A stretch of 64,000 nt of DNA from an uncultured Candidatus Saccharibacteria bacterium (GCA_964644035.1 CAZXUH010000001.1:393093-457092); one strand, 5' to 3'; counted from the first letter of the stretch, positions 5,101 to 55,631 are shown. The notes: generated from the sequence alone by a model not told the origin. Made by a program: numbers and translations.

Positions 5101-8100
5101 TACCTACCCTACCTCCCAATGCTGCGAGAAGAACATTTGCATACTCTACACCAGCTTTTAGACCAGGATTGATTGTAACGTTCCCAGCTGTTCCAGAAGT
5201 TCCTGCATCACCAGCAGTAATCGTAACTGCTCCACCTGTACCAGTACTACCGGCTGAGCCAGCAGTGATACTTAGACTTCCACCTACCGTACTAGCAGCA
5301 CCTGAAGCAGAACCAGCCGCCAATACGAGATTTCCACCAAATGAGTTCGAACCAGTACCTGCACCCGATCGAATAGTAATGACACCACCACCTGTACCAC
5401 CATTACCACCTTCTCCACCAATAATAGTGACCCCTCCACCAGCATCTGTTCCCGATCCACCCAACACTCTGAGAGCTTCAGGTGCATCAGAAGAAGAAAC
5501 ATCAGAAGCATTTAGTCCCTCTATAGAAAGAGTTGCGAGCGGAGTACTTGAACCAATACCTACCATACCATTTTGAAGAATCGAGAAGTATTCATTGCCA
5601 CCCGCTGAAGCTGCGTCGAAGATACCAAAACGATCGGGACCTGTGGCTGAGATCGACCATGTAGTTGTACCTACATTATATGTTCCAGCCCAGACCGAAT
5701 TCCATCGTGCACCTGTTGCTCCGAGATTGTATGCTGACATATTGCCGCTGTATGGTGCACTTGGAAGAATATCTCTCATCATCGATGTGCCAGCGACAGT
5801 AAGAAGACTTGTAGGTGTTGTTGTACCAATACCGACATTGCCCGTCATATAGTAAATATCATTTCCTGTCTGTGTCCATTTTGATAGACCAGGAATACCA
5901 AGTGAAGATGTTGATGTCCATACTGGAGCTGCAGTTGAACCTTGTGACAAAAGCACCTGACCAAGTGTACCAGCATTGTTATTGAAGAGCGTTGCACCTG
6001 ACTGATTAATTTCAAACATCTTCGTATTTGTTGAAGATGAAATGAGGAATGGGGTTACAGTTCCCGATCCAGTAACCTGAAGTCTAGAAATAGGTGTTGT
6101 TGTACCAATACCAACATTTCCAGCTGTAGGGTTGATGATCAAATTGCCTCCTGCAGAAACGAGATATGAGTACAGACCACTTACCCCCAAACGTATACCT
6201 CCACCAATTACACCAGTTCCCCAGTTGTTTGAATTAGTATTGAAACTTATTCGAGGATCTGTTGTCCAGCTGAATGTAGCTTGAGCATCAACACCAGAAC
6301 CTACATCAACCGTAAGATTTCCTTCAGCCACAGTTCCTATTTGCAATTCTGACGTTGGGATAGGTGTAGCAATTCCAACATGTCCATTCGCATTTATTCT
6401 AAATATTGATGCGCCAGTGGATGATGCAATATCTACAAGAGGTACTGTTGGAGCAGTCGATGAACCTCTGATTGCGAGCTGTCCGCTTGGTGTAGATGAT
6501 CCAATACCAAGTCGTCCTGAGAGATAGTTGTGATTTTCACCAACCATATACAAACCATAATTGACCTGTCCGCCAGTAGGATTGCCATAGTATGAGACAA
6601 CTGATGTAGGGCCGAAAATAAATGATACTCCAACTGGAGTTGATTTAACACCAATAAGAGCTCCTGATATATCATAATCACCACCTATGTCTATGATTGT
6701 TTTTGAACCCGCAATCGTAACAGATGAACCACCTGTTGTGAATGCAAGATCAGGATTTGAACTACTTGGATTAATAATGCCAACATTGCCAGTAACAGTA
6801 AGTTTTGAACTTGGATTGACTGTATTGATTCCCACATTGCCGTTTTGCAATATTTCAAGCAAACTTACATTTGTAGACGAAGCGATTCTGAATGGATTCG
6901 TTCCACCCACTCCTGTGACTTGGAATGTGGTCAGAGGTGTTGAAGTACCTACAGCAACTTTTCCTGTGTTGTAATAGATATCGGATCCATTGGTGATCCA
7001 TTGTGATGACGATGCAATATTTGCAAAACCAAGTGAAGATGTTGCTACCCATAGCGGTGCAGCAGTTGAACCTTGTGACAAGAGAACCTGGCCAAGAGTT
7101 CCTGCTGAATCATTAAATAATGTTGCGCCAGACTGATTAATCTCAAACATCTTCGTATTTGTTGAAGATGAAACAAGGAATGGTGATGAGCCACCTGCAC
7201 CTGTGATTTGCAGACGAGCAAGTGGGGATGTAGTGCCAAAACCTGAGTTTCCGCCAGTCAACATAGTCAATTTGACCGTAGCTGTTGGACCAATCATCAA
7301 AGAGCTAGCAACATCGTTGACGATAAAGTTACCAAATACGAGTGAGTTGGCTGCGGAAACCGTGTTGAACGAACCAACTGCTGTACCATAACCAACATTG
7401 ATCGTGTTGGAATTACCGATTGCAGTTGAGTATCCATCGATTGGACCGCTTCTACCATTTACAATATTGAAACTTCCGAGTGCCGCGTTGTATATACCAC
7501 CTCCGACATTGTTACTACCTCCGATTGCGATGCTATTACCAAGCGTTGATGTGGCACTATTGTATTGACCGATAATGATTGATTCTGGGCCGCTCGCAAC
7601 TTGGTTGTGTGCTGTTCTTCTGCTCTGAATATCAATTGATCGTGCACCACGTGCCGCACCGCTGGTATCTCCCATAATAATCGCTCCACTTGATCCAGGA
7701 TGACTTACTGAGAGTGCGCCGAATACTGTTGTTGTTCCAACAACAGAAAATATTGATGCTGGAGATGATGTACCCACACCAACACTACCCGAACTATTCA
7801 AGACGGACAGGACAGGACTGTCAGCACTGCCGTTTGACGTACTGTCACCAATAAATACACTACTTGCGCCGTCGGGTTGGATATACAAATCTGCCCAAGC
7901 ATTAAGAGCGGCACTATGTCCTCCAAGCCATGCTTGAGAATTGTATTCGCCCATCAAAAATGCAACATTGTCTCCGCCGGCTACAATTCTTCCTCTCCAT
8001 GAGGCAGTCGATGCGCCTGTACCGCGTACATAGAGTTTTGCACCGCCATTTGCCGAAGGAATATCGTTGGAACCAATTCCAACATTACCGTTTTGCTGAA

Positions 8101-11100
8101 CTTCAAACAAAACAGTATTCGTTGACGAAGCGATTCTGAATGGATTCGTTCCACCCACTCCTGTGACCTGGAGTGTTGTGAGGGGTGTTGAAGTTCCTAC
8201 TCCTACTTTGCCTGCAGTGTATGAAAGATCATTGACTGTTTTTGTCCAGTAGTTGATCGAGGCTGGGAGTGTTGTTGAACCCAAGATATAGTTCGATACA
8301 CGTTGATCTGTGTAATAAAGATTTGAACCTTCTGCAACATTTGTTGTCAAAAAGCCAAGCGATGAAGTTGAAGTCCAGAGTGGAGCTGCAGTTGAACCTT
8401 GTGACAGAAGTACTTGGCCCAAGGTTCCATTTTGATTGTTGAATGCTACAGCGCCAGATTGATTGATTTCGAACATCTTCGTATGAGTCGATGAAGAAAC
8501 CAAGAATGGGTTGTTAGCACCTCCTCCTGTTATTTGCAATCGCGCAAGCGGAGTTGTTGTGCCGAGACCAACATTGCCACTGAAGTAAGCTCCCCCATCG
8601 ATAAAGCTTATATAAGAAGTGCCGATACTCGTTCCACTTGACTGTGTAGTCGAACTAAACACCAATTGTCCTGAGGCATTGGTATATGTGTAACCCTGCA
8701 ATGCATCACTAATCGATGTTCCATGGCGCCACTCGATCGCACCACCTCGTCGTGGAGGAGTAGGTCCTGCCGAAAGACCAGTGAGCACAATTTTTCCTCC
8801 ACCAGTCTGCCAATCACCAACATACAGATCTCTTCCCGCATTTACAAATACATCGCTATAAAATGTTGACGTACCTGATCCCAAAACATTGAGCACACCT
8901 TCAGCTGATATATTTCCTGCGAAGTAACCATTACCAGCAACTGAAAGTTTTTCAATTGGTGATGAACTTCCAATACCGAAGTTACCGTTTTGCAAAAGTT
9001 GGAGCATTACCGCATTTGTCGAAGATGACACTCTAAATGGATTCGTGCCCCCTACTCCTGTGACCTGGAACGTGGTCAAAGGCGTTGAAGTACCTACAGC
9101 AACTTTTCCAGTGTTGTAGTAGATATCAGATCCGTTGGTAATCCACTGTGATGAAGATGCAACGCTCGCAAATCCAAGCGAAGAGGTTGCTACCCATTGA
9201 GGCGCTGCAGTCGAACCAAATGATCGGAGAATAAATCCTGATGTTCCGGCATCGTTGTTGAAGAGTACAGCACCTGATTGATTGATTTCAAACATCTTCG
9301 TATTTGTTGAAGAAGAGATGAGGAAAGGACTTGCTGTGCCCGCACCTGTTACCTGAAGTCGAGCGATAGGTGTCGTGGTACTCAATCCAATATTTCCAGT
9401 ACTCAAATCACCAAAAAGCGCATTGCCTATGTTTAAGAAATTGGAATCAGAAGCTGAGCGAGCAAGTACTGAACCGATAAGTATGTTATTCGCACCTGTC
9501 GTTGAGGTTGTACCAACCCGATAACCGAGCATAATGTTATTTGATCCAGATGTAAGTGCTCCGCCTGACTGATAACCCACAAGCGTATTGGCAGAATTTC
9601 CTGTACCACTGCCCTGACCTGACAAATAACCAATTGCTACGTTCGCAGAACCTCCGTTGTTTTGGCTTCCAGCGTGGTTACCAATGTAGACGTTTACCAA
9701 TCCACCAGCATTTGAAGATCCTGCACCAGTACCAAGAAATACGTTGTTGCTACCTGTACTGCCACTACCAGCCGAATTACCTAAGAAGAGGTTGTTGCCT
9801 CCCGAAACGTTACCTGTACCAGCATTCGATCCGAGGAAGATATTGTCCGAGCCACCAACATTGGAGAATCCAGACTGATTTCCAACAAAAATGTTGTCAT
9901 TACCGCTTGTATTTGAAAATCCAGACTGATTTCCAACAAAGAAGTTATATGCTCCGCTTACTCCAGCAGCAACAGGTGTTGCACCTCCCAAAAACAAGTT
10001 GCCGGTCGTTGTTGCCAATCCAAAGAGCTGTCCGCCTGAGTAATAACTCGTGCTATCAGTGATACCAGCTACCGTAAGTGCTGCCCATGGAGTGGTTGTA
10101 CCAACACCCACCTTTCCTGTCGCACGATAGACATTACCCGATCCAAGAGTCCAATAGTTAATCGAAGCAGGAAGTGTTGTTGAACCAAGTACATAATCAG
10201 ACACCCTTTGGTTTGTGTAATAAAGATTTGTTCCTTCTGCTACGTTTGTTGTGAGAAAACCAAGTGTTGAAGTAGAAGTCCAGACTGGTGCAGCTGTTGA
10301 ACCTTGCGACAAGAGAACCTGTCCGAGTGTTCCGTTTTGATTGTTGAATGCTACTGCACCCGACTGATTGATTTCAAACATCTTCACATTTGTCGAAGAT
10401 GAGATGAGGAATGGGGATGAGGCTCCAGCACCAGAAACATGTAATCGAGCTATTGGTGACGAAGTACCAATCCCAACTAGACCATTTCCAGTTATTGTCA
10501 TAAGTTCAGTAGCGCCTGAGCTAAAGAACGAAAATGCTTTGCCAAACGCTGTACCCGATGGCTGTGATGTACCTGAGAATAAATCAACACCGTAATTACC
10601 ATTGAGTTGGAAAACATTTACCTGTGCAAAATCTGATGGTCTGCGGTACTTTATAGGATTGTTGTAATCAAGAACGATTGAGCCATTTGCAATATCGAGT
10701 TTCTGTTGGGGGGTTGTTGTACCGATACCAACATTGCCTTGGACAATCAATCCATTCGTAGGAGGTGTCTGGTTGTAATATCCTGTACCAATTGCCGCAT
10801 ATCCATTAACACCAAGTAATGTTCCAACATATATTCCGCTATTGGTATCACCAGCAACACCAAGCTGCAATTTTGCACGAGATGCACCATCTCCAGTCAC
10901 CGCATCGAGCGTTGGCAATGAACCTGCACCACCGATCACCATACGTGCGAAGTTGAAGCTTGCATTTCCAGCACCATCGGGATCAGCGAACCAGATTTGT
11001 TTGTTGTTTACCGCATTGTATCCGAGTGAGAACAAGAAACCGCTACCGCTACTTACTCCGCTGAGTGAGCTGCCGGTAAATGCAATACCACGAGTAGAAG

Positions 11101-14100
11101 TTGCTCCAGTTGCTGATTGAGCAACAGTAAAGTTCGCAGCGGGAGTTGATGTGCCGACTCCGATATTCCCATTGTTCAAAATAGTGAAGAGTGACGTTCC
11201 GGTTGAAGATGAAACGTTGAATGGATTGACTCCACCTGTTCCTTGAAGATTGAATGTATACGATGACGATGATGCATTGATACCAACAACCGATCCATTC
11301 TCTCGGAGAATAGAATCTGTAAATGCGCTACCTGTCCATCGTGGCATGAAGCCCGATGTGAGAGAGGCGGTGATTGCTGATGAAGTAAAGCCAAGTGAAG
11401 ATGTTGATGTCCAAACAGGAGCTGCTGTTGAACCTTGTGACAAGAGGACCTGACCCAATGTTCCAGCCTGATTATTAAAGAGGGCTGCACCTGATCTATT
11501 GATTTCAAACATCTTCGCATTTGTTGAAGATGAAATAAGGAAAGGACTTGCTGTACCTCCACCTGTTAGCTGAAGTTTTGCAATAGGTGTAGTTGTACCA
11601 ATACCGATATTTCCTGAAGAATTAATTGTCATATGAACAACACCAATACCCGCTCCATCTCCAGTCATAAACTGTAGATCATTAAATGTGCTATCACCAG
11701 CAACAGTACCAATTACAAGTGCGTTGTTTTGTGCTCCTGTAACGACGTCTCCAGCAGAAGTTGTAAGTGCTGAGCCAACAAAACCAAAGTACCCTGTGGT
11801 GAGAGAACCATCCTGGAGCAAGGAGATTCCAGGGTTGTCATTCTCATCGTTATTATCAGTATCAGAATCAATTACAAATAAACCGTCGCCTGCTATACCA
11901 CCACTAACATGAAGACGACCGCTTGGAGACATAGTGCCGATACCGACATTTCCGTTTTGCAAAATCTCAAACAAACTTGCATTTGTCGATGAAGAAACTC
12001 TGAAAGGATTGGTACCACCTGTTCCCCTTACTTGAAAAGTATTGAGCGGTGTTGATGTTCCTACACCAACTTTTCCTGCAGTGTATGAAAGATCATTAAC
12101 TGTTTTTGTCCAGTAGTTGATTGAAGCAGGAAGTGTTGTTGAGCCCAAGATATAGTTCGATACACGTTGGTCTGTGTAATACAAGTTTGAACCTTCGGCG
12201 ACGTTTGTTGTGAAGAATCCGAGAGAAGATGTTGAAGTCCATAGAGGTGCTGCAGTAGAACCTTGTGAAAGTAGTACTTGGCCAAGTGTTCCGTTTTGAT
12301 TGTTGAATGCTACTGCACCTGACTGATTGATTTCGAACATCTTGGTATTTGTCGAAGATGAGACGAGGAATGGATTTGATCCTCCAACTCCTGTTACCTG
12401 CAATCGCGCAAGCGGAGTAGTTGTACCTACACCCAGATTTCCAGTTGATGAGATAGTGATCTTTGCAGAATCACTTGAACCAATCTGAATACTATTTGCA
12501 ATTGAGTTGTTGATGTTTTGTCCAATAATTGTCGCATCTGCTGCCGACACAATGTTGTTGTAACCAAAAATGAGTCCGTTACTTCCGCTTGAAGTATTTG
12601 CATTACCATAAAGTACTGAACCTCCGGCTTCTGCTAGGTTATCCCTACCGATAAGTACAGCATCAGACGAAGAAGCAATGTTACCTCTTCCGATCAATGT
12701 ACTATCGGCAGAAAAAGCATTTGCGCTGTTTGAGATACCAACAATAAATACATCTGCTGCCTCGTTAAGGTTCGATGATCCAAAAATAGATCCACCTGAA
12801 CCATTATTACTATTGCCCAGACCAAATGTAACAGCATTCGCTTTAGTCGAACTATTCGAGAGTCCAACTACAAACTGCTCAGTTTCAACACCTCCCCCCG
12901 TCAAAGCATTGTCACGACCAAAGGATGCACATTGTTCGCAATCCACTGAGTTTGCAAAACCAATTGCAATCGTTTGAACTCTGGACGCCTGGTTGTCGGC
13001 ACCGAAAGCTATTGCATTAACTCCGCTGGCTACCCATGTAGGATCGCCATGCGAAGATTGAATATCGATAGAGCTCGTTCCGCGCGCATTACCGGAAGTG
13101 TCTCCAATCACCACCGCATTTGTAATTGGATACTTCATTGAGAGAGCTCCGTAAATGCTTGTTGTGCCAACCACATACAACGGTGTTGCTGGCGTCGATG
13201 TACCAATACCAACATTACCTGTATTGAAGTAAATGTTAGCGCCGTTATTGATCCATTGTGACGAAGTAGCTGTACCTCCAATACCAAGTGATGAAGTTGC
13301 GACCCAGATAGGCGCAGCTGTTGAACCTTGAGACAAAAGCACTTGACCAAGCGTTCCAGCTTGGTTGTTGAAGAGCGCTGCGCCCGATTGATTAATCTCG
13401 AACATTTTCGCATTTGTTGAAGATGCAATGAGGAACGGACTTGCTCCACCAGCACCCGTGATCTGAAGTCGAGCAATAGGTGTCGATGTACCAATACCCA
13501 ATCGATCGTTTGTATCATCCCAAATAAAATTGGCTGCATCGCTTGAAAGATAACCGTTGGTCGATGCAAATGGAATGATGCCAGAACTAAACGCCGTAGC
13601 GCTGCTGTTTTGAAGCAAAATATTTCTATCGGTGTTGGCTGGTGAGAAGTAAAGCTGCGTTCCGTCGTATTCGACTGCTCCAGCTTCAGCCGATGTGAGG
13701 TTGGTACCAGGGCTGAACTTGAGAGGTGCCGTGCTTGCAGATGCCGTACCAGTTGCAAGATGAAGCAAAGCGCTAGGTGTTGTAACACTGCCTCCCAAAA
13801 ACAACTTACCGTTGAGTTTGCTGCTCAATCGGTCGGTCAAATTCAATGCAATAGTGCCATTGCCATCATAGAGATTCATTGCACCACCGTCGACATGGAT
13901 AAACGATGAACCATTTTGAGAGCGGAATGAGTATGAGTACACACCAATGTTTGGAACAATGCGAGCCTGACCCCCGGCACCAGTGAAGAGGGCGATACCG
14001 TCATCAGCAACGCTGAAACGCTCTACATCAGCACTGTTGAATGTTGCAAAATGCTTATCAGAACCACTACCGGTACTGCGAACAGTCAGACGATGCGTCG

Positions 14101-14704
14101 GTGTGGATGTACCAACGCCAACATTGCCGCTTGAAGTGATCGAAAATACTGAGCTTGTGCTTGCACCAAAGAATTCTGCAACCTTGCCAGCACCAGTTTG
14201 GATGATGCTCATAAACGTCGAAGCACTTGAGGTGCTGTTGCTCTGATCGTTTCTGAAAAATGCACTTCCCGAAACACCGCCAAGTGTTCCCGCATCTTTT
14301 GCAATCATTGCTGCAGGCACTGCACCGAGAATTTTTCTTGGTGTCATTTCACTATCCGCTTCGATCGTCACACCAAGATACAACACCTGATTGAAATCAA
14401 TACTCGTCAACGAAGTTGTTGAACCGAGCATGATGCTGAAGAGTCCGTCGGTTACTTGTACGGTGTCCGACTCTGTCCAGATTGCAACGCCACCTGTTGG
14501 AACTGTGTAGAGTTTGAAAACGATATCGTAATCACCGTTGGTGACTGCAATGTTTGCCGGAGTGGTGAGACGACCTTGATAATTGATTTGAGGATTGAAT
14601 GCAGCTTGTGCAACTGGCATTTCAAAAAATCCGACGAAAGGAATTGCGAGTGATGCAACGAGAACGAGGACTGACACTGGGATGTACAATAGTTTTTTTA
14701 TCAT
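2195..14704 (-). CDS. Giant (4169 aa) secreted, fibre-like surface protein. It has an N-terminal signal/TM, a tail-fibre-like N-terminal domain, more than 8 repeated ~50-aa modules (GIGTTTP..ARLQVTG..SPFLISSSTN.KMFEINQSGA), Gly/Asn-rich beta-helix-like repeats, a C-terminal intramolecular chaperone auto-processing (peptidase S74) domain, and a Pro/Glu/Thr/Asp-rich tail.
   Basis: Single uninterrupted ORF. N-terminus MIKKLLYIPVSVLVLVASLAIPFVGFF..AQA is signal-like. The C-terminal segment CTSDQRLKKNIATL..SFNWLAENDAAERHPGFIAQEVEAVFPDLV..DGYKSLAYSSFAPYLVQGIQEL matches the conserved S74 chaperone-of-endosialidase motif set (approx DNA 2575-2900). The final ~76 aa are PE/T-rich low complexity. Confidence 0.8.
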   Translation of the reverse strand: MIKKLLYIPVSVLVLVASLAIPFVGFFEMPVAQAAFNPQINYQGRLTTPANIAVTNGDYDIVFKLYTVPTGGVAIWTESDTVQVTDGLFSIMLGSTTSLTSIDFNQVLYLGVTIEADSEMTPRKILGAVPAAMIAKDAGTLGGVSGSAFFRNDQSNSTSSASTFMSIIQTGAGKVAEFFGASTSSVFSITSSGNVGVGTSTPTHRLTVRSTGSGSDKHFATFNSADVERFSVADDGIALFTGAGGQARIVPNIGVYSYSFRSQNGSSFIHVDGGAMNLYDGNGTIALNLTDRLSSKLNGKLFLGGSVTTPSALLHLATGTASASTAPLKFSPGTNLTSAEAGAVEYDGTQLYFSPANTDRNILLQNSSATAFSSGIIPFASTNGYLSSDAANFIWDDTNDRLGIGTSTPIARLQITGAGGASPFLIASSTNAKMFEINQSGAALFNNQAGTLGQVLLSQGSTAAPIWVATSSLGIGGTATSSQWINNGANIYFNTGNVGIGTSTPATPLYVVGTTSIYGALSMKYPITNAVVIGDTSGNARGTSSIDIQSSHGDPTWVASGVNAIAFGADNQASRVQTIAIGFANSVDCEQCASFGRDNALTGGGVETEQFVVGLSNSSTKANAVTFGLGNSNNGSGGSIFGSSNLNEAADVFIVGISNSANAFSADSTLIGRGNIASSSDAVLIGRDNLAEAGGSVLYGNANTSSGSNGLIFGYNNIVSAADATIIGQNINNSIANSIQIGSSDSAKITISSTGNLGVGTTTPLARLQVTGVGGSNPFLVSSSTNTKMFEINQSGAVAFNNQNGTLGQVLLSQGSTAAPLWTSTSSLGFFTTNVAEGSNLYYTDQRVSNYILGSTTLPASINYWTKTVNDLSYTAGKVGVGTSTPLNTFQVRGTGGTNPFRVSSSTNASLFEILQNGNVGIGTMSPSGRLHVSGGIAGDGLFVIDSDTDNNDENDNPGISLLQDGSLTTGYFGFVGSALTTSAGDVVTGAQNNALVIGTVAGDSTFNDLQFMTGDGAGIGVVHMTINSSGNIGIGTTTPIAKLQLTGGGTASPFLISSSTNAKMFEINRSGAALFNNQAGTLGQVLLSQGSTAAPVWTSTSSLGFTSSAITASLTSGFMPRWTGSAFTDSILRENGSVVGINASSSSYTFNLQGTGGVNPFNVSSSTGTSLFTILNNGNIGVGTSTPAANFTVAQSATGATSTRGIAFTGSSLSGVSSGSGFLFSLGYNAVNNKQIWFADPDGAGNASFNFARMVIGGAGSLPTLDAVTGDGASRAKLQLGVAGDTNSGIYVGTLLGVNGYAAIGTGYYNQTPPTNGLIVQGNVGIGTTTPQQKLDIANGSIVLDYNNPIKYRRPSDFAQVNVFQLNGNYGVDLFSGTSQPSGTAFGKAFSFFSSGATELMTITGNGLVGIGTSSPIARLHVSGAGASSPFLISSSTNVKMFEINQSGAVAFNNQNGTLGQVLLSQGSTAAPVWTSTSTLGFLTTNVAEGTNLYYTNQRVSDYVLGSTTLPASINYWTLGSGNVYRATGKVGVGTTTPWAALTVAGITDSTSYYSGGQLFGLATTTGNLFLGGATPVAAGVSGAYNFFVGNQSGFSNTSGNDNIFVGNQSGFSNVGGSDNIFLGSNAGTGNVSGGNNLFLGNSAGSGSTGSNNVFLGTGAGSSNAGGLVNVYIGNHAGSQNNGGSANVAIGYLSGQGSGTGNSANTLVGYQSGGALTSGSNNIMLGYRVGTTSTTGANNILIGSVLARSASDSNFLNIGNALFGDLSTGNIGLSTTTPIARLQVTGAGTASPFLISSSTNTKMFEINQSGAVLFNNDAGTSGFILRSFGSTAAPQWVATSSLGFASVASSSQWITNGSDIYYNTGKVAVGTSTPLTTFQVTGVGGTNPFRVSSSTNAVMLQLLQNGNFGIGSSSPIEKLSVAGNGYFAGNISAEGVLNVLGSGTSTFYSDVFVNAGRDLYVGDWQTGGGKIVLTGLSAGPTPPRRGGAIEWRHGTSISDALQGYTYTNASGQLVFSSTTQSSGTSIGTSYISFIDGGAYFSGNVGLGTTTPLARLQITGGGANNPFLVSSSTHTKMFEINQSGAVAFNNQNGTLGQVLLSQGSTAAPLWTSTSSLGFLTTNVAEGSNLYYTDQRVSNYILGSTTLPASINYWTKTVNDLSYTAGKVGVGTSTPLTTLQVTGVGGTNPFRIASSTNTVLFEVQQNGNVGIGSNDIPSANGGAKLYVRGTGASTASWRGRIVAGGDNVAFLMGEYNSQAWLGGHSAALNAWADLYIQPDGASSVFIGDSTSNGSADSPVLSVLNSSGSVGVGTSSPASIFSVVGTTTVFGALSVSHPGSSGAIIMGDTSGAARGARSIDIQSRRTAHNQVASGPESIIIGQYNSATSTLGNSIAIGGSNNVGGGIYNAALGSFNIVNGRSGPIDGYSTAIGNSNTINVGYGTAVGSFNTVSAANSLVFGNFIVNDVASSLMIGPTATVKLTMLTGGNSGFGTTSPLARLQITGAGGSSPFLVSSSTNTKMFEINQSGATLFNDSAGTLGQVLLSQGSTAAPLWVATSSLGFANIASSSQWITNGSDIYYNTGKVAVGTSTPLTTFQVTGVGGTNPFRIASSTNVSLLEILQNGNVGINTVNPSSKLTVTGNVGIINPSSSNPDLAFTTGGSSVTIAGSKTIIDIGGDYDISGALIGVKSTPVGVSFIFGPTSVVSYYGNPTGGQVNYGLYMVGENHNYLSGRLGIGSSTPSGQLAIRGSSTAPTVPLVDIASSTGASIFRINANGHVGIATPIPTSELQIGTVAEGNLTVDVGSGVDAQATFSWTTDPRISFNTNSNNWGTGVIGGGIRLGVSGLYSYLVSAGGNLIINPTAGNVGIGTTTPISRLQVTGSGTVTPFLISSSTNTKMFEINQSGATLFNNNAGTLGQVLLSQGSTAAPVWTSTSSLGIPGLSKWTQTGNDIYYMTGNVGIGTTTPTSLLTVAGTSMMRDILPSAPYSGNMSAYNLGATGARWNSVWAGTYNVGTTTWSISATGPDRFGIFDAASAGGNEYFSILQNGMVGIGSSTPLATLSIEGLNASDVSSSDAPEALRVLGGSGTDAGGGVTIIGGEGGNGGTGGGVITIRSGAGTGSNSFGGNLVLAAGSASGAASTVGGSLSITAGSAGSTGTGGAVTITAGDAGTSGTAGNVTINPGLKAGVEYANVLLAALGGRVGIGTTTPVAQLNVKGISSAPTTPLFEVASSTNNSIFRINSNGNVGVGITNGTANLSIENPNDNTDSFAIYSGGTERFSMQVSAASTDTASFFVRNNNVMTLNEDTLVGIGTTTPAAKLQVTGSAGTNPFRIASSTNTVMLQLLQNGNFGVGVANPTTKVSLGSDTANTKLAIYDDGTSTMGLGAQSGQFRFNLYTSANNRYSFMDAPAGNEIFTILGTGKVGVGTTTPLTKFQVTGSAGSSPFRVSSSTNSSMFEILQNGYVGIGNSNPAKILTINDSGGLATMRIERTGQVNNLQADFAIQTPGGVQHFQIDVTDGASTAKTLSLNPSGGLVGVGTSSPATSLQVRGIGGTNPFRISSSTNVSLLEINQAGNVGIGTTSPLVKLDVNGGIHTNNGIIINTTGNNTTAAPGTLQIYGTNNKLRMTYPGVVDTDFVINSSGHLTITGMNNVGIGTTTPIARLQITGAAGATPLFEISSSTNHAPGKPSGTLMRVLSTGQVAIGTSTPFKGAALTIERNNADASGNSYRALGFNNTSSFLFHGGYTMDIISDASGVVQNMASDPTYDSNGIITSITCQHGGRSCSSLEVINGELRYNQRMTAALGGYLGAVLTISNGAVSIGSTTPGATFSVRGTSTRPTKIIFDVASSSGATLLRVNADGNIGIGTTSPLARLHITGIPGANSTFRISSSSNETVLEVAPNGFVGIGTSTPAYMLSVGNASTTGVIARFQNTNGTCDVDPTSSALSCTSDQRLKKNIATLSTSSSLEKLRNLRSVSFNWLAENDAAERHPGFIAQEVEAVFPDLVNTNPDGYKSLAYSSFAPYLVQGIQELDMKVTTLEQLIASTSAMLSSVSIFDRIQATLGVFTKVQTSELCLDDVCINKDQLRALLNQTGGSTPPPSNPGNGGGDEPPPDDGNASSTPPVEDETPSDEPPPEDTSADETPSEDTPADSGSEQETPPVEEPPVTEPTP
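4300..13450 (-). repeat. Intragenic near-identical DNA repeats within the giant gene, with 0.8-1.3 kb spacing
   Basis: The motif ...ctgattgatttcaaacatcttcgtatttgttgaagatga.. recurs at ~6011, 7141, 8461, 9281, 10361, 11491, 12321 and 13381, with weaker copies at 4341, 4680, 6850, 8100, 8990, 11180 and 11960. A second motif, ccttgtgacaa(g/a)ag.acctg.cc.a..gttcc, precedes each copy. Confidence 0.8.
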
Positions 14705-15075
14705 TTTCCTATTTGTGCATCCTTGTCCAATAACGTGACTGTTTCTGTAAGACTCTTTGCGGGAGTTTTCAGTGCAACATTTGATGTTGTTGTCTCACCT
14801 GAAAAATAGAAAAAGGCGGATGCAAATCCGCCTACACAAAAGAGAAATACTGCAACCAAAAGTCCTCGACCATTTGCAAACAATGCTCTCCCGGCTGGCA
14901 CGTAGTGCTTGGTCATGAAATAAGATTTTACTTCCCGTTCACTGACAAACCAGTTGCGGCCTACCTTCTTACCTTTGACCTTTCCAGAACGAATAAGAGC
15001 CCCGATGTAATCGGAGTGATACCCTGAAATTTGGGCGGCTTGCTTAAGCGTGATGTAATCCTGAAATATGGCCAT
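14701..15075 (-). CDS. Membrane-tethered helix-turn-helix protein with an HTH_17/excisionase-type DNA-binding domain and one TM helix; stop codon overlaps the giant gene start (ATGA)
   Basis: ITLKQAAQISGYHSDYIGALIRSGKVKGKKVGRNWFVSEREVKSY fits the HTH_17 pattern (..IRsG.l....gr.wri..). A hydrophobic stretch LLVAVFLFCVGGFASAFFYF follows, then a 30-aa tail. The 4-nt overlap 14701-14704 is read directly from the coordinates. Confidence 0.6.
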   Translation of the reverse strand: MAIFQDYITLKQAAQISGYHSDYIGALIRSGKVKGKKVGRNWFVSEREVKSYFMTKHYVPAGRALFANGRGLLVAVFLFCVGGFASAFFYFSGETTTSNVALKTPAKSLTETVTLLDKDAQIGK

Positions 15076-15090
15076 GTTGAGGGCTCGTAC

Positions 15091-15117
15091 AGAAATCTCG
15101 AGTTACTCGAGATTTCT
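15091..15117. promoter_or_regulatory. Perfect 27-bp palindrome AGAAATCTCGAG-TTA-CTCGAGATTTCT followed by a T-run, ~16 nt upstream of the HTH gene start. Candidate operator, leader hairpin or terminator.
   Basis: Read directly: the 12-bp arms are exact reverse complements. Confidence 0.55.
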
Positions 15118-15204
15118 TTTTTACTAATAAAAGCCCTGTAGATATAATTATATCTCAGAAAATGTTCAAAATATGGCTATAAATCAAGGGTTGTTGATAA
15201 CTTT

Positions 15205-16596
15205 TTAATAAAGTTTTTGAGTTTTTTCCCTTATGAAAATTCTGACGATTACGTAGATTCCGATGAACAAAATGATCAAGTAAATGAGCAAAAATAAACC
15301 AATGAAAAATATAATTTGTCTATTTTTTAGACTTCCCTGCCCGACAAGATTTGAGCTCGAAATAAACATACCTGGAACGTGCGTTTCGCTACCTCGACTC
15401 AAGAAAACAATGTCAAAAAATGAGTCTCCGGAGGTAAGTGAAGCAGGCACTACAACTTCAAGATATCCATCGCTATGTTTTCTGAAAAGAAATGTATTGA
15501 TGTTACCCTTTTCGATGATTCGAATGTATGACTGTTCTGTATTTTTTGGTATGACCGATTTTGGTACACGCACGATCACTGCTTGTTGATTGTTGATAGA
15601 AAAATTTTGTCGTGAACCAAAAATCCTCGCACCATTTTGAAAAAATAAAATCGATTCAGTTGCTGTGGTCGAAGTTGAAATAGTATTTCCGCCAAAAAGT
15701 GGAAGTGATCCAAAATTGTTTCCCGATGAATCGTAGAAAATAAAATCGGTGACCGCGCCGGAAGAATAATTTCCAAATCGATCTCGTGCAAACGCTGTAT
15801 AAAAATAATGCATGTTTGAAAATGCATTTGAATCGAGTGCTTGCTGTCCCCGACCTTCGTACACAAAATATCCTTCTTGAGGATCGCGCGGATAATATCT
15901 CGTACCGCGTCTGATACGAACAAAATCAAAATCTTCATCGCGAGGATTCTTCCACGTCAGCAAAATATTTCCTCCAAATGAAAGTTCAGCACGAAAATCA
16001 GTAATGTTCGAAGGTGGCGTACGATCAAACAATGATTTTGTTCTAAACGCATAGGTCACCTGCGCCGACTGACCAAAACCGTCCGATGCTCGAACTGTTA
16101 CGTAGTACAGCGTATCCGGCAAAAGGTTGGTCAGCAAAATATTGTGAATATTCCTCAGATCAGTTTCAGTAACATTGCCCGCCGAAGTATCTGGATCGGT
16201 ACCCCAGGAAACCGTGGACAAAGTCTTGGCTGGGGTCGTCCAACTCACTATGGCCGTCGTCGTAGAAGCCTCTATTTTGAAGTTTTCGAAGACAATTGGC
16301 CATTTGTACGTACCTCCAGGACCTGGTTCGGCGGGAGGTTGTGGTGCCACAGAAGGTGTGGTTGTGGGAGTCGGAGGGGTGGTAGTAGCAGTACAATCTG
16401 AAGGACAACTACTGACCGTTTCCCCTAAAAACAGTTCGCAAATCAGATTGTTATTACAGCCCTCAACCAAGAGCTCGATTACCGTCGAATCATCCGCTGT
16501 CGCGGCCTGTACCGAAGAATGTCCTATAGAAACATAAAGGACACAGACCGAAATTACCAGAAATAACCAGGCAAATGTCGTCTTTTTTGAAAGCAT
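15205..16596 (-). CDS. Secreted, membrane-anchored protein with an N-terminal signal, a Cys-rich segment, a Pro/Thr linker, two fibronectin-III-like domains and a C-terminal TM anchor
   Basis: Signal MLSKKTTFAWLFLVISVCVLYVSIG..VQA. Linker TTTPPTPTTTPSVAPQPPAEPGPG. FN3-like stretches (TAIVSWTTPAKTLSTVSWGTDP...LYYVTVRASD; ILLTWKNP..DFVRIRRGT..YFY). C-terminal IIFFIGLFLLIYLIILFIGIYVIV plus RIFIREK. Confidence 0.6.
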   Translation of the reverse strand: MLSKKTTFAWLFLVISVCVLYVSIGHSSVQAATADDSTVIELLVEGCNNNLICELFLGETVSSCPSDCTATTTPPTPTTTPSVAPQPPAEPGPGGTYKWPIVFENFKIEASTTTAIVSWTTPAKTLSTVSWGTDPDTSAGNVTETDLRNIHNILLTNLLPDTLYYVTVRASDGFGQSAQVTYAFRTKSLFDRTPPSNITDFRAELSFGGNILLTWKNPRDEDFDFVRIRRGTRYYPRDPQEGYFVYEGRGQQALDSNAFSNMHYFYTAFARDRFGNYSSGAVTDFIFYDSSGNNFGSLPLFGGNTISTSTTATESILFFQNGARIFGSRQNFSINNQQAVIVRVPKSVIPKNTEQSYIRIIEKGNINTFLFRKHSDGYLEVVVPASLTSGDSFFDIVFLSRGSETHVPGMFISSSNLVGQGSLKNRQIIFFIGLFLLIYLIILFIGIYVIVRIFIREKTQKLY

Positions 16597-16603
16597 GGTC
16601 GTA

Positions 16604-17359
16604 TTATAACGCTACTGCTGTTGCCGTGATAACTGCCGAATAAGCACCACTTTCTTGCATCTTTGACGGTCCTATTTCAGCTCTTACCTTGACGGTCGTG
16701 GTGGCGCCCGAAGGATGGTTGGAACCGGTCGATTGCGATATATTCTTGGTTGTTAGAGTAAAACCGTCCCAGCAAGCGTCTGCGGTGTCAGAGGAGCCTG
16801 TATTACACACAGAACTGTTATCTTTGAAGCGTGGAAGAATATCAGCTCCTTCTGGGCTAAATCCAAAGGCCGATGTAGTCGAAACTATAGCAAAAGTATA
16901 ATCAGGGTCAGCACTTGCCGGTGTGTAATCGTCAAAAGAGATTCCTCCGGAGGTTTGAAGTGCAGGATCAGTCGAGGCTTGGACCGAAAGCACGTAGCCA
17001 GCGCTATTGTCGGTCAATACATTCCAAGCGATAGAACCATTACTCGTACCTCCAATCAAGCCGTTGATATCAGCAAGCGCCACATCTGGTGGTGAGCTAA
17101 TCGAGATATACGACGTATACATCTGCTGATACCCAGCTTTCATGACATAGTTGGTGCTACTGGAAAGTCCTGTTGCTATCTCACCTACCGTATCTTCGAG
17201 ATTGAAACTGGTACTCGTCGAACGCCCTCCCCCGACATCAATAGCATCAAAATTGATTTTGTAATTGGTACTTTGCATTGCAGCAAAAGCCGAAACGAAA
17301 GACAGTGAGAGAATACCGATGGCAATGTACGCGCCCGCGCGCATGATTTTATTTATCAT
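16604..17359 (-). CDS. WxL-like secreted cell-surface protein (Csc-cluster-like, small subunit type)
   Basis: Signal peptide; Ser/Thr/Gly-rich beta-rich composition. The C-terminus SGAYSAVITATAVAL resembles the WxL C-terminal motif G.Y.GTLTWTL but lacks Trp. Start overlaps the upstream gene by 4 nt. Confidence 0.45.
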   Translation of the reverse strand: MINKIMRAGAYIAIGILSLSFVSAFAAMQSTNYKINFDAIDVGGGRSTSTSFNLEDTVGEIATGLSSSTNYVMKAGYQQMYTSYISISSPPDVALADINGLIGGTSNGSIAWNVLTDNSAGYVLSVQASTDPALQTSGGISFDDYTPASADPDYTFAIVSTTSAFGFSPEGADILPRFKDNSSVCNTGSSDTADACWDGFTLTTKNISQSTGSNHPSGATTTVKVRAEIGPSKMQESGAYSAVITATAVAL

Positions 17360-18360
17360 TGCTTGCGACGAAATTCAAATCTTGAAAGGAAGAAGTAAGA
17401 AATAAGTATAAGCAGGACAAGACCACCGCCAACAGCAAGAAGAATTTTCCACGGAAGAATCCAGAATGCCAGAACTTTGGTATCAATAATGTCACCGTAA
17501 CCTCGATTGAGTTCGAGAGTTGCCTTGTAACGTCCGATCCTGAAGCTATCATCTGCCCAATTTACATCTCGGTAACGCAATGAATCTGGAAGTGAGAAAT
17601 AAGCGTCAATCGGTAAAACTCCGATTTCACTACCAAACAGATTGCTAATCCTGATCACACCGTAGGGCGCCAAGTGCACACTACCTGTGTTGTTGAAAAG
17701 TATTTGGAATTTGTCAGGAGATGTTTCGTATATCCAATGTTTATCTGAAATACGAAAATCTTCCACAAAACCGCTTTCATTTACCGGACCGTTGACTCTG
17801 ACAAAAAACAAGACACCGACACGAGAAATAATCTGAGCACCACTAACCGAAGTACTACTGTCGTTCTGAGGCCCATTGGCGACAATTACCGACGAATAAT
17901 AGCCTCCCGGCAAGGCATTTGCTGGGATTTGTATGGTGATAGGAATAGTGATTCTATCCCCAAAATTAAGGGTAAAATCGGAAACTGCAGGCCGTAAAGA
18001 GTCCTTAAATGAATTAGGGCTTCTGTCATCGCCAAGAAGAACAACGGGATTTTGTTCTTCACGAGAACCGACGAAATCTTCGGTCGTAACCTTGAAATCC
18101 GTCTTCCTGTTTATACGACTGGTAACTGAAATATATTTGACGATTGTGTCGCCCGGATCAGCAAAAATTTCCATTTTGCCTGGTTCGAGAACGAAGTCAT
18201 TTTTGTCATCGACACTCATCGATGTGATCTGAGGTCTTTCGGAAGTCTGAGCAAATGTTGCCGCAGGAGCAAGTATGCACGACATCAATACGATTAAGAA
18301 TGCAATATTCTTAGTACGGCTTAGTCCGCAAGATCGTAGTATTGATTTCTTTTTCGGCAT
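17356..18360 (-). CDS. DUF916/DUF3324-like cell-surface protein with a C-terminal TM anchor (CscA-like)
   Basis: Signal peptide; N-terminal domain ..ITSMSVDDKNDFVLEPG..; C-terminal ..YKATLELNRGYG..VLAFWILPWKILLAVGGGLVLLILISYFF plus RRKQ. This is the architecture of DUF916-DUF3324 proteins in WxL loci. Confidence 0.5.
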   Translation of the reverse strand: MPKKKSILRSCGLSRTKNIAFLIVLMSCILAPAATFAQTSERPQITSMSVDDKNDFVLEPGKMEIFADPGDTIVKYISVTSRINRKTDFKVTTEDFVGSREEQNPVVLLGDDRSPNSFKDSLRPAVSDFTLNFGDRITIPITIQIPANALPGGYYSSVIVANGPQNDSSTSVSGAQIISRVGVLFFVRVNGPVNESGFVEDFRISDKHWIYETSPDKFQILFNNTGSVHLAPYGVIRISNLFGSEIGVLPIDAYFSLPDSLRYRDVNWADDSFRIGRYKATLELNRGYGDIIDTKVLAFWILPWKILLAVGGGLVLLILISYFFLSRFEFRRKQ

Positions 18361-18365
18361 TTTTA

Positions 18366-19028
18366 TTAGATCGTTGTCGCTGTAGCCACGATGGTAGCCT
18401 TGTATGTTCCGGATGGAATATAGGAGTTATTCTGTTCTACCGCATAGCAGACCGTACTGTCAACACCCGAAGTTGTTGTTGTCGACGAGCGTGTAGCGAT
18501 TGTTACGTCCGATGTTGTGAAGCCTTTGTATTTGAGTGTAGTTGAAGTTGCGTGAGCGTTGGTAGTAGTGCTGCAGAGAGATCCTGTTCCCCATGTACCA
18601 GTTGGTACATCGGTACCGAAGGCTGAGTAGCCAAATTCGTATGTACCAAATGGAGTACTCCAAAATGCCGGTGCGCCAGTCTGGTCGTCACCAATAGTGT
18701 TGGTTGAGGATTGCATAGCAGGAGTAGAAGTAGCCTTGACTGCGAGGGTGTAGCCGAGGTTATTGTTTGTCTTAACATTCCAAGTCGTTGTCGCAACAGC
18801 ACTGTTTTGCGCGACACCGACTGCTGTACTCATGGTTGCATCAGCAGGGCTCGTGATCGAAATACCAGCGGTCACGTTGAGCGTGATAATGACCGTATCT
18901 GATGCCGAGGCCTGTGCTCCAGCGTACATCGGTTCGAGAGATGCGTACGTAACCAGTGCGCCGACGCTCAAGACCAAGTATGATGCAGCGAGCTTAAATA
19001 TTTTTTTCTTAATGTTCATGATGTACAA
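18366..19028 (-). CDS. WxL-like secreted cell-surface protein
   Basis: Signal MNIKKKIFKLAASYLVLSVGALVTYAS. TTTWNVKTNNNLGYTLAVKAT resembles the first W.L region. The C-terminal SGTYKATIVATATTI resembles the WxL terminal motif. It is the first gene of the 4-gene minus-strand operon. Confidence 0.45.
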   Translation of the reverse strand: MYIMNIKKKIFKLAASYLVLSVGALVTYASLEPMYAGAQASASDTVIITLNVTAGISITSPADATMSTAVGVAQNSAVATTTWNVKTNNNLGYTLAVKATSTPAMQSSTNTIGDDQTGAPAFWSTPFGTYEFGYSAFGTDVPTGTWGTGSLCSTTTNAHATSTTLKYKGFTTSDVTIATRSSTTTTSGVDSTVCYAVEQNNSYIPSGTYKATIVATATTI

Positions 19029-35928: not shown

Positions 35929-36055
35929 ATAGTGTTGTTTGTAGCCTAACTGATACGGTTAATAAATCGGCAAATAAAAATGCGTCTCCTTAAACACACT
36001 CATCGCCTTGATGAGAACTAGATACAATTGTAACCAAAAAAACTTTCAAAAGACC

Positions 36056-36064
36056 TGTGGATAA
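36056..36064 (-). promoter_or_regulatory. Perfect DnaA box (TTATCCACA on the minus strand) ~125 nt upstream of the nrdA start
   Basis: The plus strand reads cctgTGTGGATAAgtc. Confidence 0.5.
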
Positions 36065-36149
36065 GTCACTGTGATATACAAAATTTTCTTTGTAAATAAG
36101 GATGTCAGAAAATGAAGCTAGGTAGAGCCGCTACAGCAACACACACAAA

Positions 36150-55588: not shown

Positions 55589-55614
55589 CTGTCAACAACT
55601 ACTGATAAAAAGAC

Positions 55615-55623
55615 TGTGGATAA
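55615..55623 (-). promoter_or_regulatory. Perfect DnaA box (TTATCCACA on the minus strand) next to the LexA operator
   Basis: The plus strand reads TGTGGATAA. The same 13-mer ctgtggataagtc occurs at 36053-36065. Confidence 0.4.
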
Positions 55624-55631
55624 GTCGGGAA

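Follow-up and report, generated by a model that had tools for sequence, protein, structure and literature searches.

Transcription factors of the ToxR, CadC and TcpP type consist of a cytoplasmic N-terminal DNA-binding domain, one transmembrane (TM) helix and an outward-facing C-terminus, and bind promoter DNA from the membrane. RodZ binds MreB through an Xre-type helix-turn-helix (HTH) domain and carries a DUF4115 outer domain, while RacA, GlnR and MerR act as dimers on inverted repeats, which in solved complexes of MerR-type dimers are bound ~12-13 bp apart. CPR/Patescibacteria grown in culture are attached to host cells, and to our knowledge little has been reported on the regulation of their attachment organelles. 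The pam operons of CPR co-localise with a 'tail fibre-like protein', and the main text of the preprint describing them mentions no HTH protein, regulator or leader element (bioRxiv 10.64898/2026.03.03.709456). In MYRF, a membrane-bound transcription factor, a Peptidase_S74 chaperone domain of the kind known from phage tail fibres has been described (PMC3742443). No description of an HTH-TM-fibre module with a palindrome was found in the literature open to our search.

The locus analysed here lies in a window of 64 kb (the whole stretch of DNA that was analysed) from an ultrasmall CPR/Patescibacteria bacterium and comprises a small gene, the giant gene that follows it and the operon that precedes both:

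14701..15075, minus strand: gene of the HTH-TM-tail protein, 124 aa (ATG start; TGA at 14701-14703)
14905..15057, minus strand: winged HTH domain of MerR/Xis (HTH_17) type, residues 7-57 (Pfam, AF2, Foldseek, invariant columns)
14803..14865, minus strand: single predicted TM helix, residues 71-91 (hydropathy, charge bias, AF2 helix 70-91)
14704..14802, minus strand: predicted extracytoplasmic tail, residues 92-124 (alignment of relatives, AF2)
2195..14704, minus strand: giant tail-fibre-like protein, 4169 aa (signal peptide; Peptidase_S74 at residues 3948-4004)
15205..19028, minus strand: upstream WxL/Csc- and Pam-pilus-like operon (profiles, AF2, Foldseek, synteny)

The first-pass annotation had proposed an HTH_17-like domain followed by a TM helix and a 30-residue tail, a layout that was borne out by Pfam, AF2 and hydropathy, except that the tail comprises 33 residues. 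Pfam HTH_17 (PF12728) matched the 124-residue protein over nearly its full profile (positions 1-48 of 51; E 7.9e-6) with 26.5 bits, 0.5 bit short of the gathering score of 27, and a precomputed PF12728 match is present in several orthologues; the NCBIfam model 'excise' (TIGR01764) gave 22.7 bits (E 9e-5) against a threshold of 28.8. The AF2 model reached a pLDDT of ~90 over residues 10-55 and showed the b-a-a-b-b(wing)-a fold, with strands at residues 7-9, 35-38 and 41-45 and helices at 10-17, 21-30 and 46-57. The top Foldseek matches of this domain were Xis, TraN, RacA, BldC, RdfS and MerR N-domains, and all close fold matches were dsDNA-binding domains, including Pukovnik Xis (4j2n), BldC (6amk), RacA (5i44), the GlnR-DNA complex (4r4e) and TraN (4p0y) with TM-scores of 0.57-0.75 on the target; a search for PDB relatives at the sequence level found none. 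Orthologous proteins are only 41-56% identical, and the N-terminus MAIF... is kept in all relatives, as is a family motif, GYH(S/P)DYIGxLIRSGK, in the HTH domain. One hydrophobic segment was detected (best 19-mer at residues 71-89, mean hydropathy 2.31), consistent with the TM helix anticipated earlier, and the excess of K+R on its N-terminal side (12 K+R vs 4 D+E, compared with 4 vs 4 in the tail) leads to a predicted N-in, C-out topology. The outer tail is disordered in the AF2 model (pLDDT <50) and carries a family motif, L(T/S)(D/E)TVxP, with an AQIGQ-like end.

With its N-terminal cytoplasmic DNA-binding domain, single TM helix and outer C-terminus, the predicted protein resembles ToxR, CadC and TcpP in layout, and to this extent the label "ToxR-like" given in the first-pass annotation is apt. 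It does not extend to the domains themselves, as those regulators use an OmpR/PhoB-type DNA-binding domain, whereas Pfam found only HTH_17 and no OmpR/PhoB-type (Trans_reg_C) domain here, and as the folded periplasmic sensor of ToxR-type proteins is replaced by the short disordered tail, or by a giant fibre in fused relatives. Unlike in these regulators, the tether is very short, and its 12 residues, short for reaching DNA, count against a reading of the protein as an autoregulator. The MerR/Xis matches are all soluble and none is membrane-inserted or fibre-linked, in contrast to the predicted membrane insertion of the 124-residue protein. RodZ likewise has an N-terminal HTH domain in the cytoplasm and one TM helix leading to an outer segment; no Pfam match to an Xre-type HTH or to DUF4115 was obtained for the protein studied here. 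RwpL of Lactiplantibacillus plantarum (PMC13522541), compared by description only, differs in being soluble and c-di-AMP-controlled. MYRF (PMC3742443) shares the association of a membrane-bound DNA-binding protein with Peptidase_S74, but its S74 domain is cytoplasmic, placed between DNA-binding domain and TM helix, and self-cleavage frees the DNA-binding domain, whereas S74 in the gene pair belongs to a different protein, the secreted fibre, and sits at its outermost end. A MYRF-type self-cleaving factor was rejected, as S74 (3948-4004) and the DNA-binding domain reside on different chains.

The upstream operon encodes two secreted proteins of 220 and 251 aa, a two-domain WxLIP/PapD-like chaperone of 334 aa and an FnIII protein of 463 aa, the latter two each with a C-terminal TM helix. 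Its content is like that of the Pam pilus operon of CPR (bioRxiv 10.64898/2026.03.03.709456) and of the WxL/Csc clusters of Firmicutes (PMC10599100), all three combining small secreted proteins similar to pilins or WxL proteins with two proteins that end in a TM helix, a WxLIP/PapD-like chaperone and an FnIII protein. The 334-residue neighbour (AF2 pLDDT 86.8, helix 304-333) matched the Enterococcus faecium WxLIP (CscA-type) structure 9i1y best in Foldseek (E 1e-12), followed by CfaA, CsuC and FimC, and PF06030 was matched by 2 of its 24 homologues; modelling thus supports the earlier description of the operon as Csc-like. The NCBIfam model PamT fell short of its threshold in the operon (37.7 bits vs 240, E 1.5e-9), a sign of no more than a distant relationship. 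Wherever a relative offered sufficient flank, the HTH-fibre pair follows such an operon, and all six genes of the synteny are kept.

At the junction of the small and the giant gene, the sequence ATGA (minus strand, 14704-14701) both opens the fibre reading frame with ATG and closes the small one with TGA, confirming the overlap noted before, and every relative examined has either this overlap or a stop codon followed by 1-3 nt and ATG. The fibre protein begins with a signal peptide (cleavage context AQA|AFNPQINYQGRLT) that is kept in its relatives together with the context AxA|AFNxQINYQGRLT. This signal peptide is its only hydrophobic segment and is lost at cleavage, so that no part of the mature fibre is predicted to anchor it in the membrane. 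In other Patescibacteria, a TM helix and a giant ectodomain share a single ORF with one to three HTH copies; one such ORF (L036) has fibre repeats in common with the fibre protein of the window, and the HTH family comprises at least 4500 sequence clusters. From this comparison we infer that the small protein may correspond to the membrane and cytoplasmic portion of the fused HTH-TM-ectodomain type, separated from its ectodomain.

These findings bear on whether the main role of the small protein is structural, as an anchor of the fibre or a partner in its assembly, its HTH serving as a protein-interaction or nucleoid-tethering module in the manner of RodZ or RacA and not as a regulator. The fused forms, in which this HTH-TM module makes up the N-terminal part of giant surface proteins, the loss of the fibre's own hydrophobic segment, the conserved motif in the tail and the presence of RacA, a chromosome anchor, among the fold matches agree with such a role; it leaves unexplained, however, why a palindrome is locked to HTH-domain genes, and the close fold matches are without exception dsDNA-binding domains. 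We consider it unlikely that anchoring is the main function, but an anchor role fits with the explanation we favour and does not exclude an autoregulator.

The region between the upstream operon and the small gene contains a conserved promoter element and a structured leader:

15091..15117, no strand assigned: perfect 12-3-12 palindrome with core AATCTCGAG-N3-CTCGAGATT, candidate operator and leader RNA helix P2
15147..15152, minus strand: TATAAT -10 box of the HTH-fibre gene pair, kept in 14 relatives
15131..15137, minus strand: 5' strand of helix P1, AGGGCTT, near the predicted transcript start
15080..15086, minus strand: 3' strand of helix P1, GAGCCCT, covering the sole SD-like GAG, located 5-11 nt upstream of the ATG
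15191..15202, minus strand: DnaA-box-like motif AGTTATCAACAA, immediately behind the stop codon of the upstream operon

Relatives of the DnaA-box-like motif precede the promoter in most related loci. The palindrome reads AGAAATCTCGAG-TAA-CTCGAGATTTCT on the gene strand (15117..15091) and is indeed a perfect 12-3-12 repeat as first described, although its distance to the small-gene ATG is 15 nt and not 16. Each of the 14 leaders has an unchanged TATAAT box, often as TGnTATAAT, at the same place ~75 nt ahead of the ATG. The box is preceded by the stop codon of the upstream operon and followed by the palindrome, which, counted from the box, would occupy roughly +24 to +50 of the transcript. As the gene pair has its own conserved -10 box, the palindrome belongs to the leader and is not supported as a terminator of the upstream operon, one of the functions suggested earlier; the T-run noted with it follows the palindrome only on the plus strand, antisense to all neighbouring genes, while the gene strand has A6 before the hairpin and TTTCTGTACG after it. 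An intrinsic terminator, whether ending the pilus operon or shielding it from antisense transcription that begins within the giant gene, appears very improbable to us. The plus-strand scan does call a 12-bp stem followed by TTTTTT, the longer U-tract is on the antisense side in 14 of 14 orthologous leaders, and A.C mismatches of the sense strand become G.U on the antisense strand. Nevertheless, the sense-strand tail is terminator-like in only five of the 14 leaders, two loci (L019, L047) have a separate terminator-like hairpin with a T-run upstream of the promoter, distant copies of the palindrome have no U-tract on either side, and termination does not need a conserved stem sequence.

Comparative analysis indicates that the palindrome is genuine and under selection. 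It is found once in the 64 kb, and its 19-nt core with up to three mismatches has one other weak match there (0.23 expected by chance). All 14 orthologous leaders retain the core ATCTCG-N4-7-CGAGAT, two of them with one mismatch, and its seven base pairs are almost invariant despite the low protein identity. Roughly half of the distant HTH homologues also have it upstream, and about half (L013, L015, L018, L027, L032 and the L035-L037/L040 group) lack it. Exact ATCTCG..CGAGAT occurs in 21 copies in 381 kb of loci, all upstream or at the start of an HTH gene and including fused giant genes (L041, L031, L016, L028); with up to one mismatch, 26 of 41 matches fall within 250 nt upstream of HTH genes, stretches that together make up 2.6% of the sequence, and in a control the 33 chance copies in viral contigs had no such HTH gene nearby. 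In three loci (L041, L025 and L046) a gap of 5-7 nt separates the -10 box from the palindrome, the classic position of a repressor site, and mixed half-sites (ATCTCG/CGATAT) are present in L019, L025 and L046; both features hint that the element is read as DNA. This tracking of the HTH domain over large evolutionary distances is the behaviour expected of an autoregulatory operator and strengthens the earlier proposal of such a site.

The same region has features of a structured RNA. The outer helix P1 joins the 5' leader to the weak ribosome-binding region and covaries (GG:CC to CC:GG swaps), matched 5' and 3' segments pairing better than mismatched ones (permutation p = 0.0015), and in P2 five pairs are changed on both sides, a number matched by none of 500 shuffles. 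The spacing of the half-sites varies from N4 to N7, while the arms always reach a 3-4-nt centre with compensatory changes (e.g. CTCGGA/TCCGAG in L051), a combination that fits a stem-loop better than a fixed protein dimer. The leader fold has a z of -6.5, and in L041 and L025 the start of the hairpin coincides with the predicted +1 or is close to it. All this would accord with P1 and P2 acting only as RNA, by stabilising the 12.9-kb mRNA or hiding the weak ribosome-binding site, with the palindrome left unbound by the HTH protein, which would have other targets or none. Against it, a purely structural hairpin should drift, yet the seven core pairs barely change and ATCTCG recurs in very distant genes that share only the HTH domain; none of the 22 non-standard cells of the sense-strand stem is G.U, the mismatches being A.C, C.U and similar; single-arm changes occur mid-stem in L006, L019 and L025; P1 is missing in L012, L024 and L051; and no Rfam 15 family matched the leader (best ncr1015, 26.2 bits vs 60, E 0.23). 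Taken as one, the two halves of this explanation seem doubtful to us, though they retain an appreciable share of the probability.

We favour, with a probability of about 0.5, the explanation that the 124-residue protein is a membrane-tethered autoregulator, and probably an anchor, of the secreted fibre that binds an operator in its own leader. The small and the giant gene would be transcribed together from a promoter of their own, directly after the WxL/Pam-type pilus operon. The small protein would insert N-in, holding its MerR/Xis-type winged HTH domain in the cytoplasm ~12 residues from the membrane and pointing its 33-residue tail outward, while the fibre would be made from the same mRNA through translational coupling and exported via Sec with loss of its signal peptide; the tail probably holds or contacts it. 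Judging from comparative genomics, two HTH domains would dimerise on the ATCTCG-N7-CGAGAT palindrome and block transcription of both genes, so that the level of membrane-inserted protein would in turn control how much of the very costly fibre is made. As first suggested, the protein might also couple envelope status to fibre expression. Once transcribed, the palindrome would fold into hairpin P2, and P1 together with P2 may add control of stability or translation. More tentatively, and at odds clearly below even, Patescibacteria may possess a widespread and so far undescribed architecture for signalling and assembly, made up of a cytoplasmic MerR/Xis-type HTH domain, a single TM helix and a giant host-contacting fibre, in one chain or as a translationally coupled pair, with the HTH domain binding a conserved palindrome at its own promoter.

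The HTH family joins a DNA-binding domain across the membrane to giant surface proteins, and together with the palindrome it points to an undescribed module for their control or anchoring. The 62-residue soluble domain and the 27-bp site form a testable cis-trans pair. If the HTH domain binds the palindrome, the family would represent a new class of membrane-bound transcription factor with the fibre itself as the "sensor", in which fibre assembly, load or host contact could be tied directly to transcription. Alternatively, the locus could be tethered to the membrane and a multi-thousand-residue protein exported while it is made, or, if the HTH domain reads the hairpin as RNA, the mRNA could be tethered there for export during synthesis. 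Binding of the palindrome, if true, would also provide a handle on how cells with genomes of ~0.6 Mb ration the production of very large secreted proteins.

Analysis of the coding region revealed that the gene for the 124-aa HTH protein ends within the start of the giant fibre gene, its TGA (14703-14701) sharing bases with the ATG (14704-14702) of the 4169-aa ORF (2195..14704), exactly the stop/start overlap described in the first-pass annotation. The elements discussed below are listed here.

Features of the HTH-fibre locus and of related loci (window positions unless a relative's locus, L003 to L041, is named)
14701..15075, minus strand: ORF of the membrane-anchored HTH protein (HTH-TM), 124 aa
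15117..15091, gene strand: palindrome AGAAATCTCGAG-TAA-CTCGAGATTTCT, 15 nt before the HTH-TM ATG
15137-15131, minus strand: 5' strand of the outer leader helix P1, AGGGCTT, near the predicted 5' end
15086-15080, minus strand: 3' strand of P1, GAGCCCT, holding the only SD-like GAG
17356-18360, minus strand: WxLIP/PapD-like chaperone, 334 aa, assigned by model and structural match
15191-15202, 36055-36066 and 55614-55625, minus strand: copies of a DnaA-box-like motif, also present in L003 at 9850-9930
L025 4155-4225, L038 leader and L041 126-170: AG(T/C)TCTTT repeats, the last copy abutting the ATG

The proposed layout of an HTH_17-like domain followed by one TM helix was retained at the level of structure, with a single TM segment at 71-89 by hydropathy and a winged HTH in the AlphaFold2 model; the Pfam HTH_17 match, although covering nearly the full profile (E 7.9e-6), reached 26.5 bits against a gathering score of 27, and an NCBIfam excisionase domain matched weakly. 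In the model, built with 14 homologues, residues 10-55 have a pLDDT of about 90; one strand and two helices lead into a two-strand wing and a third helix, behind which lie the helix at 70-91 and then the tail, modelled as disordered. Foldseek comparison with the PDB retrieved mycobacteriophage Xis, TraN, RacA, BldC, RdfS, GlnR and MerR N-terminal domains with TM-scores of up to 0.75 on the target, while a PDB sequence-profile search with the family profile gave no meaningful match and a cluster look-up of the protein returned neither accession nor name. The charge distribution (12 K+R versus 4 D+E on the N-side, 4 versus 4 in the tail) fits a predicted N-in, C-out orientation. A terminator-like hairpin within the TM-coding part of this ORF (14814-14833, minus strand; AGGCGGATTTGCATCCGCCT then TTTTCTATTT) is missing from 13 relatives and probably arose by chance.

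A word-indexed search identified 13 orthologues of 118-142 aa with 41-70% identity, in which the first 60 residues are strongly conserved (MAIFxDYITLKEAGxISGYHPDYIGALIRSGKVKGKKxGKNWFVS...), the TM segment retains only its general character, and the tail keeps a short L(T/S)(D/E)TVxP motif. Exhaustive phmmer searching with residues 1-62 extended the family to 4519 representatives with E <= 1e-3, of which 655 reach E <= 1e-10; the top matches mostly carry two HTH copies, many measure 300-400 aa, and a substantial set is giant (777-3936 aa). Both the sequences and the loci display a single-ORF layout of 1-3 HTH copies, a TM helix and a variable, often huge ectodomain, and one such fused protein (L036, 1956 aa) shares a repeat motif with the window fibre (BLASTP E 9e-7). 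As HTH, TM helix and ectodomain thus occur elsewhere in one ORF, we regard the window pair as a split form. All nine matches in the reference-genome collection came from Patescibacteria MAGs (Taylorbacteria, Adlerbacteria, Parcubacteria and 'Saccharibacteria'), and scanning viral contigs by protein yielded only three partial matches. Literature searches combining HTH_17 with TM, or Patescibacteria with excisionase or membrane-anchored, returned no description of the family, and we found no account of the family, its giant-protein fusions or the palindrome in the available literature.

The only Pfam match in the 4169-aa fibre is Peptidase_S74 (residues 3948-4004), the intramolecular chaperone of phage tail fibres. 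In split forms the two genes meet without exception in an ATGA overlap or with 1-3 nt between the stop and the ATG, and each fibre opens with a signal peptide together with the conserved site AxA|AFNxQINYQGRLT, giving AFNPQINYQGRLT as the mature N-terminus in the window; judged from these signals, the cleaved fibre would be left without a membrane anchor of its own. Behind every short HTH-TM gene the mature start (window 14560-14704, minus strand) follows AFNxQINYQGRLTxxxxxAVxNGxYxxxFKLYT, and this strand-like segment could serve as a donor strand for the adjoining WxL/Pam-type pilus or as the point where the HTH-TM tail docks. At its other end the giant gene converges with dnaE (23..2188, plus strand), 6 nt separating the stop codons (2188-2195).

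Wherever the flank of an orthologous locus reaches far enough, the four upstream genes (220, 334, 251 and 463 aa) keep their order. The model of the 334-aa protein (pLDDT 86.8) comprises two beta-sandwich domains and a C-terminal TM helix, with Enterococcus faecium WxLIP as best structural match (9i1y, E 1e-12), ahead of CfaA, CsuC and FimC, chaperones of the chaperone-usher type; Pfam WxLIP_PGBD was matched by two of 24 homologues. The 251-aa protein weakly matches NCBIfam 'CPR-type pilus protein PamT', and the 463-aa protein combines an FnIII-like domain with a hydrophobic C-terminal segment. This content agrees with the Pam pilus operon of CPR bacteria, whose PapD/FimC-like chaperones, like its FnIII protein PamR, carry a TM helix at the C-terminus, and which consistently lies beside a 'tail fibre-like protein' (bioRxiv 10.64898/2026.03.03.709456). 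The label 'Csc-like' originally given to the upstream genes is therefore reasonable. The modelled 334-aa fold links Firmicute WxL/Csc clusters structurally to CPR Pam pilus chaperones, a link without mention in the text of the preprint, whose main text likewise contains no HTH protein or regulator.

The palindrome occurs once in the 64-kb window and was found where the first-pass annotation had placed it, although 15 rather than sixteen nt from the start codon. A scan for ATCTCG-N0-9-CGAGAT across non-redundant loci totalling 381 kb revealed 21 exact copies, every one upstream of or at the start of a gene for this HTH domain; among these genes are giant fused ones (L041, L031, L016, L028) and divergent ones with a single HTH (L026, L029). 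When one mismatch was allowed, 26 of 41 matches fell within 250 nt upstream of HTH genes, a region amounting to 2.6% of the sequence. As a negative control, 2.9 million IMG/VR viral contigs gave 33 pattern matches, none near an HTH gene; the three inspected (L061, L063, L067) have no leader-like context, and these matches appear to be due to chance. About half of the distant homologues (e.g. L013, L015, L018, L027, L035-L037) do not have the palindrome. L016 has three related palindromes (ATATCGGCAATGCGATAT, ATCTCGAGATGCTTGCCGAGAT, ATCTCGCATACGAGAT) scattered across some 500 bp (6270-6760), with a 266-aa HTH-TM gene on one side and, on the other, a giant gene (>2239 aa) that begins with an HTH, and this stretch may be a multi-operator control region.

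Alignment of fourteen orthologous leaders showed three invariant parts: a TATAAT box, often extended to TGnTATAAT, whose distance from the ATG stays at about 75 nt; the core of the palindrome; and the final dozen bases ahead of the ATG. Since the TATAAT precedes the palindrome, the latter lies within the HTH-fibre transcript and does not end the upstream operon, as had been considered; the T-run reported behind it exists on the plus strand only, the gene strand having A6 in front of the hairpin instead. Separate terminator-like hairpins with T-runs were found upstream of the -10 box in L019 and L047. The sense-strand tail of the palindrome qualifies as terminator-like in only five of the 14 leaders. 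Any terminator role ranks low and is highly improbable. In the window alone, the -10 region GATATAATTATATC (15141-15154) is itself a perfect palindrome and therefore offers promoter-like hexamers on both strands.

Seven core pairs of the palindrome are nearly invariant, and among the outer and innermost pairs five positions changed on both sides, a number reached by none of 500 shuffles. Not one cell showed a one-sided G.U change; non-standard sense-strand cells were A.C (8), U.C (4), U.U (4), G.G (3), C.U (2) and A.G (1). For the 151-nt leader the folding energy is -42.7 kcal/mol (z = -6.5), and Rfam gave no match near threshold across 14600-15400. Because its 5' strand falls at differing alignment positions, P1 was assessed by a duplex-energy permutation test rather than a column-wise count: over the 14 leaders, matched duplexes averaged -8.6 versus -7.0 kcal/mol for mismatched ones (p = 0.0015). 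Its central pairs are swapped between relatives (GG:CC in the window and L011, CC:GG in L006, G.U variants elsewhere), and P1 is missing in L012, L024 and L051.

The covariation of P1 speaks for an RNA structure, as do half-site spacings that range from N4 to N7 while the arms, through compensatory changes (L051 CTCGGA/TCCGAG), always reach a centre of 3-4 nt. A palindrome acting purely as RNA is a reading we rank second and consider rather unlikely. We favour an operator combined with a leader RNA structure, at a probability of roughly 0.5, with DNA and RNA constraints probably both acting on the palindrome. For an operator argue the conservation of a sequence and not of a stem alone, the linkage to HTH genes across very different architectures and promoter positions, mixed half-sites (ATCTCG with CGATAT in L019, L025 and L046), the lack of a G.U signature and the dsDNA binding common to all fold relatives. 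A further argument is that dimers of the MerR type, GlnR for example, are known to recognise inverted repeats spaced about 12-13 bp; a GlnR-DNA complex was among the fold matches. The palindrome of L041, L025 and L046 begins 5-7 nt past the -10 box, a position overlapping the predicted start site.

Two further motifs were noted near HTH genes. Nearly all leaders of HTH genes carry the DnaA-box-like (A)GTTATCCACAG ahead of the -10 box, sometimes fused to TTGACA; in L003, L010, L024 and L049 it forms 4-5 tandem copies. The identical 12-mer ACTTATCCACAG recurs twice in intergenic DNA of the window, where no enrichment was seen at two mismatches (5 observed, 4.5 expected); the motif could be a general promoter-proximal element or the site of a second regulator. 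In fused or tandem-HTH giant gene leaders, 3-4 AG(T/C)TCTTT direct repeats stand between palindrome and ATG. As Xis and BldC-type HTH proteins bind direct repeats, these could by analogy be further HTH binding sites.

Among known systems, the HTH-TM protein would work like ToxR/CadC-type membrane-bound regulators but is no family member, having another DNA-binding fold and no folded outer sensor, and it is not RodZ. MYRF likewise joins a membrane-bound transcription factor to Peptidase_S74, but with different topology and logic (PMC3742443). RwpL, reported as a soluble HTH-only repressor whose binding site lies past the TSS of a gene for a WxL adhesin, provides a functional precedent (PMC13522541).

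Sequence and comparison establish, at their own level, the protein architecture, the promoter box belonging to the gene pair itself, the overlap with a predicted secreted fibre, the conservation of the palindrome, its linkage to the domain and the fused forms. On our operator-plus-RNA reading, the HTH would dimerise on the palindrome, which lies at about +24 to +50, and block transcription, putting the pair under negative feedback scaled to the amount of membrane-inserted product; P1 and the palindrome helix P2 may modulate translation or mRNA stability, and the tail may contact fibre or pilus. A mainly structural, anchoring role for the protein, compatible with this reading, seems improbable.
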